Source of the DNA: Candidatus Poribacteria bacterium
GTDB lineage: Bacteria; Poribacteria; WGA-4E; JAJDTR01
Length of the DNA: 64,000 bases
Direction: 5' to 3'
Assembly (NCBI GenBank): GCA_965222225.1
Contig: CBDCTK010000002.1
Location: 5,056,850 to 5,120,849 of the forward strand
Shown: piece by piece, positions 45,093-51,338 of the stretch
How positions within the stretch are numbered: the stretch's first letter is position 1
How the letters are laid out: every line of letters begins with the position of its first letter
Position numbers and translations under genes: made by a program
Notes under the pieces: generated by a model
Databases searched by the model: none
What the model was told of the DNA's origin: nothing
Seen by the model: only the letters and a program-made list of their open reading frames with translations

Positions 45093-47018
45093 GTGAATAA
45101 GAACGCAAAAAGTACCTTGGTTTGGGTGGTGATGGCGTCAATCTTTGTTCTAGCGCTGTCCCAAGTAATCATCCGCAAAGATCGAGTCCATGAACTTAAG
45201 ACATCGAATTTCTACCAACTGGTGGAGGATCGTAGGCAATCGGCAGAAGAAAGCGGAAGATTAGGCCCAAAGGATGACGGCTTGTTTCAAGATGAGGTTA
45301 TCATCAAGAAGGAGTGGATTCAGGGTACGTTTCGCGACCCGCGGTTCGTTCAAGACGAGTTGCTAAAATTGGGTGAGATGGTCGAGATTGAGGATTGGCA
45401 GGGACAGTTTAAAACGAGTCGAGATCAGTTTTCCGAATTTCCGCTTCAGGAAAAACTCATGGCTGCGCAAGTCCCCTTTAATGTTGATCAGGCATCAAGT
45501 GTTCCTCAATGGTTGCTCATCTTTGGAACAACCGTGCTGCCAATCCTGTTGTTTGTTGGTATCATGATTTTTTTCATGAGGCAAGTGCAGGGCACCGGCA
45601 ATCGGGCGTTATCATTCGGAAAGAGCCGTGCGCGACTCCATTCCGAAGACCAAGCCAAGATTACCTTTGCCGATGTTGCGGGAGTTGATGAGGCGAAAGA
45701 AGCGCTTCAAGAAGTGATTGAATTTCTCAGGGACCCCAAGAAATTTCAACGCCTCGGCGGTCGCATTCCCAAAGGCGTTCTTCTCATGGGACCACCGGGC
45801 ACCGGCAAGACGATGTTGGCGCGCGCAGTGGCGGGCGAGGCAAACGTACCTTTTTATAGCATCAGCGGATCAGATTTTGTTGAGATGTTTGTTGGTGTTG
45901 GAGCATCTCGCGTTCGAGACCTATTTGAAACGGGCAAGAAGAATGCGCCCTGCATTATATTCATTGATGAACTTGACGCTGTTGGACGACATCGTGGCGC
46001 GGGAATTGGCGGAGGGCACGACGAGCGGGAACAGACGTTAAACCAGCTCCTTGTTGAAATGCAAGGCTTCGATACCCAGGAAGGCGTCATACTTATTGCC
46101 GCAACGAATCGCCCGGATGTCTTGGATCCAGCCTTGCTGAGACCGGGACGGTTCGATCGCCAGATTGTCGTGGATTTGCCTGATGTGGGCGGACGAGAGT
46201 CTATCCTTAAAGTCCATACCAAAGACCCCTACAAACTTGCCGAAGATGTGGACTTGAACGTACTCGCAAAGGCAACCCCCGGTTTTTCCGGTGCAGATAT
46301 TGAAAACATGGCAAATGAGGCTGCGTTGTTCGCGGCGAAGCTGGACAAAGATCACATTGATATGGACTGCTTTGATGATGCCAAAGATCGGGTAATGATG
46401 GGACCCGAGCGGCGGAGTTTGGTTGTCAGCGAGGAGGAAAGACGGGTTGTCGCCTACCATGAAGCCGGACACGCGTTGATGCTGCATTTTGTGCCTGAGA
46501 GCGATCCCAACTATAAGTGTACGATTGTTCCCCGCGGACGTGCGCTCGGAGTCACGGCAAAGTTGCCTCTGGAAGAACGTCATAATTTGAGCAAGAAACA
46601 TATCCTTACCCATATTCTATTCGCGCTTGGTGGGCGCGTCGCTGAGGAATTAATCTTTGGTGAACAAACAACCGGCGCGCAAAACGATTTCGAGCAGGCA
46701 ACGGCGATGGCACGCCGAATGGTTACCCAATGGGGAATGAGCGAGATGGGACCATTGACTTTCGGACGCCGCGATGAACAGATTTTTCTCGGCAAAGAAC
46801 TAGCTCATCATAAAGATTATAGCGAAAAAACGGCGATTGAAATTGATCAGGCGGTACACCGGATTATTATGGAATGTTATGAGAAAGCCAGACATCTTCT
46901 TGAGACCAATCTTGATGGGCTAAAATCGCTTGCCGATGCACTGCTTGACAGGGAAACACTTGTCGGGAAAGAAATTGAAGACATCCTCGGACCGAGGCCG
47001 CCTGTTCCCATAACTTGA
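45093..47018 (+). CDS. ftsH: ATP-dependent zinc metalloprotease FtsH
   Basis: Two TM; GPPGTGKT; FIDELDAVG; RPGRFDR; HEAGH. Confidence 0.97.
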
Positions 47019-47842
47019 TGAACTGCCGTGGGAAACAACTCAGTTTCGGACCGCGTACCCTCATCATGGGCATCTTGAATGTGACGCCCGATTCATTTTC
47101 CGATGGTGGAAGCTATCTTGATGTCGCCGCGGCGATCAGCCATGCCAAGGAGATGGTAGAGGACGGAGCAGATATCATTGACATTGGCGGCGAATCTTCT
47201 CGGCCGGGGGCGTCACCCGCTTCGACGGAGGAAGAATTGGCGAGAGTTCTGCCTGTGGTTGAGGGACTTGTTGATGAAATCTCTGTGCATGTATCAATCG
47301 ACACGTGCAAATCGGATGTTGCTCGCCGGTCGCTTGAAGCTGGGGCTCATATCGTCAATGACATTACGGCGCTCCAAGGAGATGCCGAGATGGCGAAGGT
47401 TGTTGTAGAGATGAATGCCGGGGTAATCCTGATGCACATGAGTGGAACCCCCCGGACGATGCAACACTCGCCGGTCTACAATGATGTCGTGTCAGAAGTC
47501 TCTTCTTGGCTTCAGCGTCGCATTGAGGAAGCGGAAACAGGAGGCATTCCCCCCGATCGCATTGTTATAGACCCCGGCATTGGATTTGGCAAAACTGTTG
47601 ACCATAACTTGGAGATTTTGCGCAGGCTTGACGAATTTCGTCACTTGAACAAGCCTATACTTATCGGTACGTCTAGAAAGTCCTTTATTGGAAAAATCCT
47701 TGACCTCCCGGTAAACAATCGAATAGAAGGAACCGCTGCTACTATAACGTGGGCAATCGCTCACGGAGCGGACATGGTCCGTGTCCACGATGTGAAGACA
47801 ATGCGTCGAGTTGCGCGAATGACAGATGCACTTTACCGCTAG
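47015..47842 (+). CDS. folP: dihydropteroate synthase
   Basis: [43 protein letters not shown]; canonical ftsH-folP order. Confidence 0.97.
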
Positions 47843-47908: not shown

Positions 47909-49045
47909 ATGCCAATTCGCTGGAGAAATCTATCTGAAATGAAAATTTTACAAGTCGCATATTGCGCCTTAATCTTTGCCACCCTAACGCATTTGGTTTC
48001 AGCCCAGCAGGCCGAGGTTACTGCCCCTGCAACCGTGGATATCTTTCTCAAGCAACTGGCACGCGCCGAACATCAGGGAATGGAAGGCAGTTTTGTCGGA
48101 TCGAATATAGGGGCACATGCGCTGAACGGTAATCCTGCAGGACTCAGCCTCATTCACGACGGTCGCTTTGCTCTTTACACCGCTCGATTTCCCCGAACTA
48201 TTGCCGTGGTGTCCCATCTGAATGAAACAGAGCGGTATGAAGATTATAGCGAATATGACCTCTATGGGTCGGGAGTTGAGCTCCTGAATTACGCCGTACC
48301 GATAGGATCCTTCGGCATAATCGGTGTCGATTTTGCCCGTGGACACGACGGACAGTTTAGTCGTGTTGATTATCTTGGGAAAGCGACTAACAATTTTCCC
48401 CAAAGCGACTGGGCGCTTGGTGTTGGATACAGCAGGGAACTTTTTGCCGGTCTAGCGGTTGGTGTGGACGCCAAATGGCTGCGTTCCAAAATTCAGTTGC
48501 CCGAGAACGAAGAACATGCTGGACACGGTTACGCTTACAATCTCGGACTGAGCCAAAAAATTGGCGAACACCTTCGAATTGACGCCGTAGTCAGAAATCT
48601 CAGTAACGGGTTGTCGTTTTCGGACGGTTCTATCCCCAATCAAATTGAACAAGATGTTCTTGTCGGAGGCGTCTACCACCAGCGCCATAAAGAATTGGAT
48701 CTGAAGTTCAGCCTTGATGTGAATCCTCCTTTCAAAAATGGTGTGCGAGCAAGCCTTGGTGGGGAAATCTGGTATCTCGGATGGATTGGTTGTAGAATTG
48801 GTTATTTTCGGCACACGGAGCACAGATGGCATCCGGTTCAGATTATTCGTACCGAAACGCTTCAAATGGAAGAAAGAATCTGGAAAACCGAGGGACCAAC
48901 ATTTGGTATCGGTTATAATCTAGGGCGGTTTCGCATAAGTGGGACATATACGCCTCAAGCAAAACCAACCGAAAAGGAAGGCGAGAGAATCCGTGTAGAT
49001 CAAGGAGGGGTTGTCTACTATTTTTCGGTTGGACAAGGCTCTTGA
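47909..49045 (+). CDS. PorV/PorQ-like (UPF0164) outer-membrane beta-barrel protein
   Basis: Signal peptide; NPAGL motif; alternating beta-strands; aromatic-rich final strand. Confidence 0.6.
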   Translation: MPIRWRNLSEMKILQVAYCALIFATLTHLVSAQQAEVTAPATVDIFLKQLARAEHQGMEGSFVGSNIGAHALNGNPAGLSLIHDGRFALYTARFPRTIAVVSHLNETERYEDYSEYDLYGSGVELLNYAVPIGSFGIIGVDFARGHDGQFSRVDYLGKATNNFPQSDWALGVGYSRELFAGLAVGVDAKWLRSKIQLPENEEHAGHGYAYNLGLSQKIGEHLRIDAVVRNLSNGLSFSDGSIPNQIEQDVLVGGVYHQRHKELDLKFSLDVNPPFKNGVRASLGGEIWYLGWIGCRIGYFRHTEHRWHPVQIIRTETLQMEERIWKTEGPTFGIGYNLGRFRISGTYTPQAKPTEKEGERIRVDQGGVVYYFSVGQGS

Positions 49046-49146: not shown

Positions 49147-49761
49147 ATGTCCGATCAATACAAGACGGTTGTTGGCATTGCTGAGTCAAAACTCGAAGTC
49201 AAAAAATCCCGATTCATCGGTTTGGCAACAGCGCTCCAAAGCCAAGACGCCATAAGGGAATTCCTGAACCTCGTCCGGCAAAAATATCCGAATGCCTCAC
49301 ACACCTGTTATGCCTATAAATTTGCAACAGGGAGCGAGGTTAGGGAATATGCGACCGACGTGGGGGAACCCACTCACTCGGCAGGCCCTCCAATACTATC
49401 AGCCATCAAAGCCGCCGAGTTGTCAAATGTAATGTGTGTAATCGTACGTTATTATGGCGGGATTAATCTGGGGGTGGGAGGACTCATCCGCGCTTATGGA
49501 GGTTGCGCTCGGAGTTGCTTGGCGAATGCCAAGATTGAAACACGAATCCTATACCAGACGCTGCGGCTACACGTGTTTCACGATCAAATTGGACCGGTTC
49601 TAAACCTGTGTCGTCGACTCAGGGGAAATGTCTTGAATGTTGAATATGATGAGAATGCTATTGTTTATTTACAGATCCGCCAACGGGAATTGGACACATT
49701 GAAAGCGAATCTTCAGCGAATGGCTGCAACAATTGAGGTAAGCAGTATTGCCACAACCTGA
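49147..49761 (+). CDS. yigZ: YigZ/IMPACT family protein
   Basis: KKSRFIG, ASHTCYAY, D.GEP..SAG.PIL, VRYYGGI.LG.GGLIRAY. Confidence 0.9.
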   Translation: MSDQYKTVVGIAESKLEVKKSRFIGLATALQSQDAIREFLNLVRQKYPNASHTCYAYKFATGSEVREYATDVGEPTHSAGPPILSAIKAAELSNVMCVIVRYYGGINLGVGGLIRAYGGCARSCLANAKIETRILYQTLRLHVFHDQIGPVLNLCRRLRGNVLNVEYDENAIVYLQIRQRELDTLKANLQRMAATIEVSSIATT

Positions 49762-49770
49762 AATGTAGAC

Positions 49771-50226
49771 ATGAGTAGACTCTGGAGGCTAACCTTGAAC
49801 GAGGTCAAATACACAACTACACATGAATGGATTGAAGTTACAGATAATGAAGGAGTTGCTGGAATCACTGAACGTGCGCAACTCATTTACGGGGATATCA
49901 TTTTCGTAGATTTACCACCCGTTAACGAGGACTTTGAGCAAGACGATGTAATCGGTAGAGTCGAAGTTGTAGACGGCGATTCGTTCCCCATCCATGCGCC
50001 AATTACGGGCGAAATCAGAGCCGTCAACACTGTCCTTGAAGATGCCCCGGATGTCATCAACCGTTCTCCGGAGGGCGATGGCTGGATTTGTAAAATGAGC
50101 GTTGAGAGTTCAAAAGAACTGGATGTGTTGATGGATGCGAAAGAGTACGACACCTATGAAGAGGAAGAACCCGATGAAGATGTGCTGAGCGAGACTGACT
50201 TTTACGACCTCAAGGATGATTATTGA
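49771..50226 (+). CDS. glycine cleavage H-protein-like protein lacking the lipoyl lysine
   Basis: KYT..HEW, GIT..AQ...GDI.FVDLP, APITGE...VN, N.SP.GDGWI; the ES-V-K motif reads EVVD. Confidence 0.8.
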   Translation: MSRLWRLTLNEVKYTTTHEWIEVTDNEGVAGITERAQLIYGDIIFVDLPPVNEDFEQDDVIGRVEVVDGDSFPIHAPITGEIRAVNTVLEDAPDVINRSPEGDGWICKMSVESSKELDVLMDAKEYDTYEEEEPDEDVLSETDFYDLKDDY

Positions 50227-50390: not shown

Positions 50391-51338
50391 CTACCCCAAT
50401 CTCGGCATGTTTCCGGTTGAGGTGATGAAGATTTTACGAACCATCGTATGTTTGCGCGCTGGCACAACGTTCTCAATACAATATCCTAAATCAGCAAGTT
50501 CGCGGTTCAGGTCTCGGGTGTGAATCAAACCTGCTCTGGGGGCAAGTTGACGAATTCGCCCCAGAATTTCTCTGTCTACCGTCATGTCCTTGGCAAGTCC
50601 GATTCCGTAGGGGAAATCTGTGATCGCCACGTCATATCGCCCGCTTATCAGACGAGCGTCGCCGAGGTGAACCTCCGCGCTCAAACCGAAATGCTTCAGA
50701 TTCTTTCGCGTTGCTCCCACCATGCGTACGTTGATGTCATAGCCGACAGCATTTATCCCCATCTGTGCAGCTTCCAGTATAATCGTACCCGTGCCGCAAC
50801 ACGGATCAAGGAGGCGGTCACCGGGTGAGGCGGTTAGATTGACAATCGCTCTAGCGAGCCTGGAAGGCAAGGAACTTGAGGTCACGTGTGGACGCTTGTT
50901 GTGGGCAATCCATCGTCCATCCGATTCCGAAAGTAACTTCCCAAACCAGATTTTCTCGTCCGTTACAACGGTCAAAAATGTGACTCGCGGCATGTCCAGA
51001 TGAGGTCTCCCGCCAATTTCCGCACCTACCTTGTGTGCAATCTGGAGGCTATTCACCTCTAATTTGTGCGGCAACTTAACGACGGACACTCGAAAATCAT
51101 CAGCGTATAGGCTCGCTGTTCTTATCTTCGTACAAATTTCCGAAATGCTTCCACCTTCGAACAGAAGTTCCGAACAACTCCTCACGTATGCGCCGCGGCT
51201 GACATCAGTGCATTTCGACGAAATGGCAAGCCCGTGCAGATTTGGAGCAGATTCAGTCAGGGCGAGGCATTCCGCGTTGATTATCTCGGCGTCTACGCCG
51301 GGAATAGCTGTCAAATAGAAATACCGCTTCAAGGACAT
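50391..51338 (-). CDS. Trm11/UPF0020-like RNA methyltransferase
   Basis: SSLPSRLARAIVNL, LLDPCCGTGTI, GYDIN, ITDFPYG. Confidence 0.75.
   Translation of the reverse strand: MSLKRYFYLTAIPGVDAEIINAECLALTESAPNLHGLAISSKCTDVSRGAYVRSCSELLFEGGSISEICTKIRTASLYADDFRVSVVKLPHKLEVNSLQIAHKVGAEIGGRPHLDMPRVTFLTVVTDEKIWFGKLLSESDGRWIAHNKRPHVTSSSLPSRLARAIVNLTASPGDRLLDPCCGTGTIILEAAQMGINAVGYDINVRMVGATRKNLKHFGLSAEVHLGDARLISGRYDVAITDFPYGIGLAKDMTVDREILGRIRQLAPRAGLIHTRDLNRELADLGYCIENVVPARKHTMVRKIFITSTGNMPRLG

Follow-up and report, generated by a model that had tools for sequence, protein, structure and literature searches.

All characterised families of H-type acceptor proteins (GcvH, GcvH-L and LbpA) are reported to keep their lysine (PMC12440151; bioRxiv 10.64898/2026.10.01.755906). 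GcvH-L is described as still a lipoic acid carrier (PMC12440151). Likewise, the LbpA proteins of the sHdr sulfur-oxidation system are reported to keep a lipoylated Lys and to have basic interaction surfaces (bioRxiv 10.64898/2026.10.01.755906). Simiate, also known as ABITRAM (FAM206A), is a eukaryotic protein described as derived from GcvH; it is reported to be restricted to eukaryotes and absent from bacteria, and near its C-terminus hydrophobic and acidic residues form a conserved cluster (PMC3859600). A literature search for Lys-less bacterial GcvH paralogs found no paper describing a lysine-less bacterial H family.

The gene considered here lies within a 64,000 nt stretch of a Poribacteria genome (the whole of which is referred to as the window) and belongs to such a family. 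Proteins of this family are labelled ‘glycine cleavage system protein H’ by NCBI and JGI. For the lysine-less family this name is wrong.

Gene structure and fold

An earlier note on this DNA described the gene as the open frame 49771–50226 on the forward strand, starting at ATG 49771. The translation stands as noted, the start does not: given the ribosome-binding site and the length and start of the orthologues (Table 1), TTG 49795 is most likely the start of the gene, and the ATG of the longer frame is probably not used. A terminator and promoter scan of the gene gave no terminator-like site directly 3′ of it and no signal exceeding shuffled expectation. The predicted protein has no signal peptide.

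Table 1. Features of the lysine-less H-like gene and its surroundings, in window coordinates
Feature	Position	Strand	Basis
ftsH, first gene of the conserved string; 4 nt overlap with folP	45093..47018	+	domain match, synteny
folP (dihydropteroate synthase)	47015..47842	+	domain match, same string
PorV/PorQ-like outer-membrane protein, signal peptide	47909..49045	+	NF033709 66.9 bits, below cutoff 90
yigZ / IMPACT-family gene, 33 nt upstream of the H-like gene	49147..49761	+	PF01205 + DUF1949
GGAGG ribosome-binding site, 8 nt 5′ of the TTG start	49782..49786	+	read off sequence
Lysine-less H-fold protein CDS, 143 aa + stop	49795..50226	+	PF01597 100 bits; orthologues 143 aa, start at same TTG
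Hairpin codons E57-V-V-D60-G61-D-S-F64, in place of canonical E-S-V-K-A-A-S	49963..49986	+	alignment, AF2
Acidic C-terminal tail, residues 118–143, conserved motif Y-x-x-Y-E-E-E ... E-T-D-F-Y ... D-D-Y	50146..50223	+	family alignment
Convergent TIGR01177-like (RMKL-type) methyltransferase; bounds the string, not co-transcribed	50391..51338	−	

H-protein motifs had been reported throughout the protein, and the profile matches agree. PF01597 (GCV_H) is matched at 100.4 bits against a cutoff of 22.2, over residues 13–132 and nearly the full model. The two models of true GcvH are approached from below, with 104.8 against a cutoff of 115.85 for TIGR00527 (equivalog) and 114.4 against 117 for NF002270 (subfamily). 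The scores of 45.1 for TIGR03077 (not_gcvH; cutoff 144.05) and 30.6 for NF045810 (GcvH_rel_desulf; cutoff 150) place the window protein outside both of these families.

An AF2 model of the protein has a mean pLDDT of 84, and Foldseek superposes it on the GcvH of T. maritima (PDB 1zko) with a TMt of 0.92 and an rmsd of 0.9 Å. The strands of the hairpin are predicted at residues 52–58 and 63–67 with pLDDT of about 90, and the acidic tail is modelled at low confidence (pLDDT 43–66) as partly helical. The complete H fold is confidently predicted to be kept in the lysine-less protein. A search of the ESM Atlas for structural look-alikes outside PF01597 returned no usable match.

The hairpin without a lipoyl-Lys

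In HMMER alignments to PDB 1zko and 2ka7, the segment V-E-V-V-D-G-D-S-F-P-I-H-A-P of the window protein is set against I-E-S-V-K-A-(gap)-A-A-D-V-Y-A-P. The Lys column is occupied by Asp and the turn is one residue longer, which confirms the substitution and the single-residue insertion read from the sequence earlier. The family alignment comprises 138 members: relatives found by search, deep-branching members taken from genomes, and members from an exhaustive profile search. At the Lys column these have D (90), T (39), S (3), E (3), A (2) or N (1), and Lys in none; the residue that follows, G61, is Gly in all 138. Conservation of the Asp variant in orthologs, which the earlier note had raised as a check, therefore holds for the absence of Lys and fails for Asp itself. 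Since not one of the 138 members has Lys at this column, the loss is, on the alignment, not a read error.

Elsewhere on the hairpin, Phe64 is kept in 120 of the 138 members, while column 63, the Ser of D-G-D-S-F in the window protein, is variable (T 44, N 44, S 25, A 9, others). A large subfamily reads E-T-E-T-G-G-N at the turn. No Lys column is conserved family-wide anywhere in the protein, the best being K5 (89 %) and K100 (63 %), and the family has no conserved Lys, Cys or Ser position in the hairpin or close to it. Cys99 is limited to one order and is missing in deep lineages. With no conserved Lys, a Cys confined to one order and an unconserved Ser, no other residue is a plausible site of attachment. 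Nor is the position of the lost Lys itself a modification site, because it varies among D, T, S, E, A and N. The lysine-less protein cannot be lipoylated at the canonical site.

Family signature and acidic tail

Comparison with 56 canonical sequences separates the residues that the family shares with GcvH from those of its own. Shared with canonical GcvH are H10-E11-W12, G23-I24, E57, P69, G72-E73, N78, N89, P92, G96-W97 and Y118. Specific to the family are E14 (R/K in canonical sequences), E26-R27 (canonical D, then Y/H/F), E46-x-E48-Q49, G61 with the insertion (canonical Ala after the Lys), E93 (canonical Tyr), D95, Y121-E-E, and the tail residues E133 and F136. The window protein has the full signature, E-[VT]-x-[DT]-G-x-x-[FY], R27, E46-x-E48-Q49, P-E93-G-D95-G-W and an acidic tail ending in Y/F. 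With the family profile (A1) it reaches 250 bits, against about 100 for canonical GcvH.

The added acidic tail noticed at the outset is present, with 12 D/E and one K/R among the final 23 residues of the window protein. The tail is about 26 residues long; across the family its median D/E content is 54 %, and 114 of 138 members end in Y or F. Acidity by itself is not new, since canonical GcvH is also strongly acidic, with a pI of 4.05 for both proteins.

Distribution, selection and origin

A word-indexed search found 214 relatives, and Lys is missing at the site in all of the 120 that were listed. Profile A1 was then run over 176 genomes of the phylum Poribacteria, with E ≤ 1e-35 taken as the paralog level: 170 genomes have a match, about 163 of them at the paralog level. 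Scores at this level are 190–255 bits in the main order, and most of these genomes show a second match, the canonical gcvH, at about 100 bits. In deep members from another class (G001–G003) and from other families (G005, G011, G014, G016, G017 and G061), the x-Gly turn is likewise Lys-less and the acidic tail is present. Additionally, 1.84 billion cluster representatives were searched with the profile; about eight clusters at 50 % identity were recognised as family among the best 150 listed, and all eight nest within the poribacterial clade. The E-x-x-[DT]-G turn together with the acidic tail may thus serve as a phylum-specific marker, as far as these searches reach.

In a quick maximum-likelihood tree (IQ-TREE), from which three other Lys-less GCV_H proteins (P0123, P0128 and P0269) were left out, the lysine-less proteins form one clade with SH-aLRT 100 and a long stem, and the canonical GcvH of Poribacteria groups elsewhere, among ordinary bacterial GcvH. 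The clade is as old as the phylum and vertically inherited; being separate and long-stemmed, it did not arise by recent duplication of the resident gcvH.

In 91 pairwise comparisons the median dN/dS is 0.076 (core 0.07, tail 0.20), values that indicate strong purifying selection on the gene. Nearly all listed profile matches have open frames, and one carries an internal TAA. The gene has been lost cleanly in two genera, g11 (G058–G060) and g13 (G064–G066). The three g11 genomes still have folP, the porV-like gene and yigZ, and in G065 and G066 porV-like and yigZ are followed, after a short gap, by the convergent methyltransferase. Clean loss with the rest of the string kept indicates that the gene is dispensable in some backgrounds.

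One genome, G017, has two further and more distant H-like ORFs, L036 (G017:C521) and L037 (G017:C143), with stop-to-stop frames of 254 and 169 aa. They score 41 and 28 bits against the family profile and are unlike both the canonical and the Lys-less forms; one is without the hairpin Lys.

Glycine cleavage and lipoate genes

The separate canonical gcvH that the earlier note suggested looking for is present in the genome of the window, in a gcvT-gcvH-gcvP operon around 4.45 Mb of G000:C2, and its H protein reads I-E-S-V-K-A-A. The same genome has LipA, one LplA/LipB-type gene and four E2 genes. Together with the absence of a conserved Lys, Cys or Ser in or near the hairpin and the strong purifying selection, this operon bears out the proposal of a repurposed non-carrier paralog.

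Other Poribacteria keep the lysine-less gene under different circumstances. In G001 (97 % complete) and G003 (91 % complete) GCV_T was not detected and the sole H-fold gene is the Lys-less one. It is likewise the only H-fold gene in G005 (95 % complete), where GCV_T, canonical GcvH, LipA, the E2 catalytic domain and the LplA/LipB domain were not detected. Canonical GcvH, the E2 catalytic domain and the LplA/LipB domain were also not detected in G016 (95 % complete) and G014 (89 % complete), nor was LipA in the former. These absences were scored in metagenome-assembled genomes that are 89–97 % complete, so that each single absence is weak; an assembly gap is an unlikely cause for the joint absence of several unlinked genes in three genomes. 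Retention of the lysine-less gene where glycine cleavage and lipoate genes are undetected implies a function independent of both glycine cleavage and lipoate. The genomes G005, G014 and G016 span two families, and lipoate use may be entirely absent from these lineages, in contrast to the genome of the window with its four E2 genes.

There is a practical consequence for annotation. Where the only H-fold gene is Lys-less and no T protein is found, as in G001, G003 and G005, metabolic reconstructions of Poribacteria, including those of sponge symbionts, would wrongly credit the organism with part of the glycine cleavage system.

Genomic neighbourhood

As had been noted, no gcvT, gcvP or lipoate gene adjoins the lysine-less gene in the window and yigZ lies directly upstream; across 16 loci sampled from the phylum, no gcv or lip gene was found next to it. 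In 15 of these 16 loci the H-like gene ends a co-directional string of ftsH, folP, a porV-like gene and, in most, yigZ. The phylum-wide order can be written ftsH-folP-(cdaA-x-acpS)-porV-like-(yigZ)-gcvH-like. The PorV-like gene is the most constant upstream neighbour, adjoining in 15 of 16 loci, and yigZ adjoins the H-like gene in many lineages. In some genomes cdaA (diadenylate cyclase), a small ORF and acpS are found between folP and the porV-like gene (L049:4995-6574 in G001, L043:11799-12194, L047:5750-6142). This block is missing from the string in the window, and since only 66 nt separate folP from the porV-like gene there, it has been moved or lost in this genome.

The string looks like a housekeeping and envelope operon, an arrangement that supports co-expression and names no partner. 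It may reflect only the co-expression of housekeeping genes, since the neighbour is an outer-membrane protein and the H-like protein is without a signal peptide. Among longer proteins there were no fused forms hinting at a partner, and literature searches on YigZ function and on Poribacteria with glycine cleavage found nothing specific.

Two neighbours were considered as partners. YigZ was rejected as an obligate partner: PF01205 is absent genome-wide from four genomes with the H-like gene, namely G032 (a single contig), G014, G016 and G011, and yigZ is also present in genera that have lost the H-like gene. Co-loss with the PorV-like gene was not seen either, as genera g11 and g13 lack the H-like gene and keep the PorV-like one.

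Several observations concern the neighbouring genes themselves. In genus g7 (G032) a class I SAM methyltransferase gene (L041:8766-9428) takes the place of yigZ between the porV-like and H-like genes. The yigZ of G067 is matched as two pieces (L047 7796-8095 and 8128-8442) and may be a frameshifted or split gene. In the genome of the window, a 2140-aa ORF at G000:C2:1863868-1864179 has a marginal match to SprA_N (28.3 bits against a cutoff of 27). The PorV-like gene and the SprA_N match together hint at a type IX-like secretion apparatus in Poribacteria.

Possible functions

That the gene is a decaying, functionless remnant of a duplicated gcvH, or a sequencing artefact, would fit its loss in two genera with the neighbours undisturbed. 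The low dN/dS, the open frames of nearly all listed matches, and retention across the phylum with a family-specific conserved signature and tail speak against this reading; the conservation data effectively refute it, and its probability is close to nil. A carrier loaded with another prosthetic group, or at another residue, is also very improbable. The idea, for example of phosphopantetheine on the Ser of D-G-D-S-F, was prompted by the acpS gene that lies between folP and the porV-like gene in several relatives, and the G-D-S-F of the hairpin here faintly recalls the D-S-L motif of ACP. Yet that Ser is unconserved, on which ground its modification by phosphopantetheine was rejected. In addition, the Lys column is occupied by varying residues, deep lineages lack Cys99, no Lys is family-wide, and acpS is not in the string of this window.

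As a decoy, inhibitor or regulator acting on glycine cleavage or on the lipoylation enzymes, the protein would dock on GcvP, GcvT, LipA or LplA as an apo-H protein does and never be loaded. The intact H fold and the retention of canonical surface and fold residues (HEW, GI, E57, P69, G72, N78, N89 and GW) are what such a protein would need, and the genome of the window encodes each class of possible target. Even so, the independence from glycine cleavage and lipoate argued above weighs against this as a general role, and with it against the link to GcvP, GcvT, LipA and LplA that the earlier note implied: the family is kept where GcvT, canonical GcvH, LipA, LplA/LipB and E2 are undetected. The gene also never adjoins gcv or lip genes in the 16 loci, and residues near the arm differ (R27 for Y/H/F, E93 for Y), which leaves the decoy reading decidedly improbable. 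A sensor that binds a small molecule or metal, through the old lipoamide cleft or the acidic E-x-x-D-G-D loop, is likewise considered distinctly unlikely. Thr9 and Glu11, which we take to correspond to the Ser and Glu flanking the His of canonical S-H-E-W and, after the pea H protein, to be cleft residues, are kept, Phe64 on the hairpin is conserved, and the protein offers many carboxylates. Against binding at the loop, the acidic residues of the turn are unconserved, as the E-T-E-T-G-G-N subfamily illustrates, and the neighbourhood holds no ligand-related genes.

The reading regarded as probable on balance is that of a functional, cofactor-free derivative of the H protein, a ‘pseudo-carrier’, which would act as an H-fold protein-binding module and whose partner would be none of GcvP/T, LipA, LplA/LipB or E2. 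In place of the swinging-arm lysine the protein has an invariably Gly-containing x-Gly turn, longer by one residue; it has also gained acidic residues peculiar to the family (E14, E26/R27, E46-x-E48-Q49, E93 and D95) and a flexible acidic tail of about 26 residues, mostly ending in Tyr or Phe. The product may be a stoichiometric protein-binding module of the adaptor or holdase type, the acidic surface and tail of which would bind a basic partner common to all Poribacteria. That partner need not be YigZ; the first candidates would be products or clients of the co-transcribed envelope and housekeeping genes. A more specific version, drawn by analogy with the docking tails of SSB and of the tubulin/EB1 type, is speculative and rather unlikely as it stands: the H fold would have a second, cofactor-free and lipoate-independent function across the phylum, as an adaptor with a Tyr/Phe-tipped acidic tail that holds or recruits a basic client linked to the FtsH/PorV-like string.

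The family offers a clean natural case of a swinging-arm carrier protein turned to another use and strongly selected over the whole history of a phylum, also in genomes in which lipoate-related genes went undetected. With it, a carrier-independent function of the H fold becomes directly testable.

Comparison with known H-type proteins

Canonical GcvH (PF01597, TIGR00527; PDB 1zko, 3a7l) has the same fold as the lysine-less family (TMt about 0.9, 32–40 % identity), a similar core length and acidity, and the shared motifs HEW, GI(T), E57, (A/S)P, G-E, N, N, P..GW and Y118. Unlike GcvH, the lysine-less proteins have no lipoyl-Lys, a Gly turn longer by one residue and a conserved acidic tail; they fall below both NCBIfam GcvH cutoffs and form a separate clade, and their genes are not linked to gcvT/gcvP and are kept in genomes without them. 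The curated models TIGR03077 (not_gcvH) and NF045810 (GcvH_rel_desulf) resemble the family in that they, too, describe H-like proteins distinct from true GcvH.

In P0123, P0128 and P0269, as in the family described here, the H domain serves as a structural module that has no Lys; these proteins differ in having tandem or triple domains, other hairpins and no acidic tail. In P0123 (1391 aa), three Lys-less GCV_H domains are fused to FAD_binding_4/FAD-oxidase_C, a 4Fe-4S dicluster and two CCG domains, as in a GlcD/HdrD-like redox protein. This architecture suggests that the H fold may be reused as a structural module in redox enzymes.

The GcvH-L of the SirTM/macrodomain/LplA2 operon (PDB 5a35; PMC4518038) is another H-type paralog encoded away from the gcv operon, and its role likewise has nothing to do with glycine cleavage. 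It differs in belonging to a dedicated modification operon, whereas the lysine-less family has neither the Lys nor such neighbours: no sirtuin, macrodomain or ligase domain was found in the 10 ORFs neighbouring the lysine-less gene. The structural match of the lysine-less model to 5a35 is weaker (E 5.8e-7, 22 % identity). The LbpA proteins are likewise H-fold paralogs that serve another pathway than glycine cleavage. The lysine-less family differs from them in being acidic and without Lys, and no hdr genes are found in the region of the window.

The closest conceptual precedent, likened here by description, is ABITRAM/Simiate, which is derived from an H protein and has a role outside glycine cleavage. 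It is reported to be absent from bacteria (PMC3859600), and common descent with the lysine-less family is not evidenced beyond GcvH itself. If the more specific adaptor reading is correct, the poribacterial protein would be a bacterial counterpart of this eukaryotic, GcvH-derived protein and would give a handle on the carrier-independent ‘moonlighting’ roles of H proteins.
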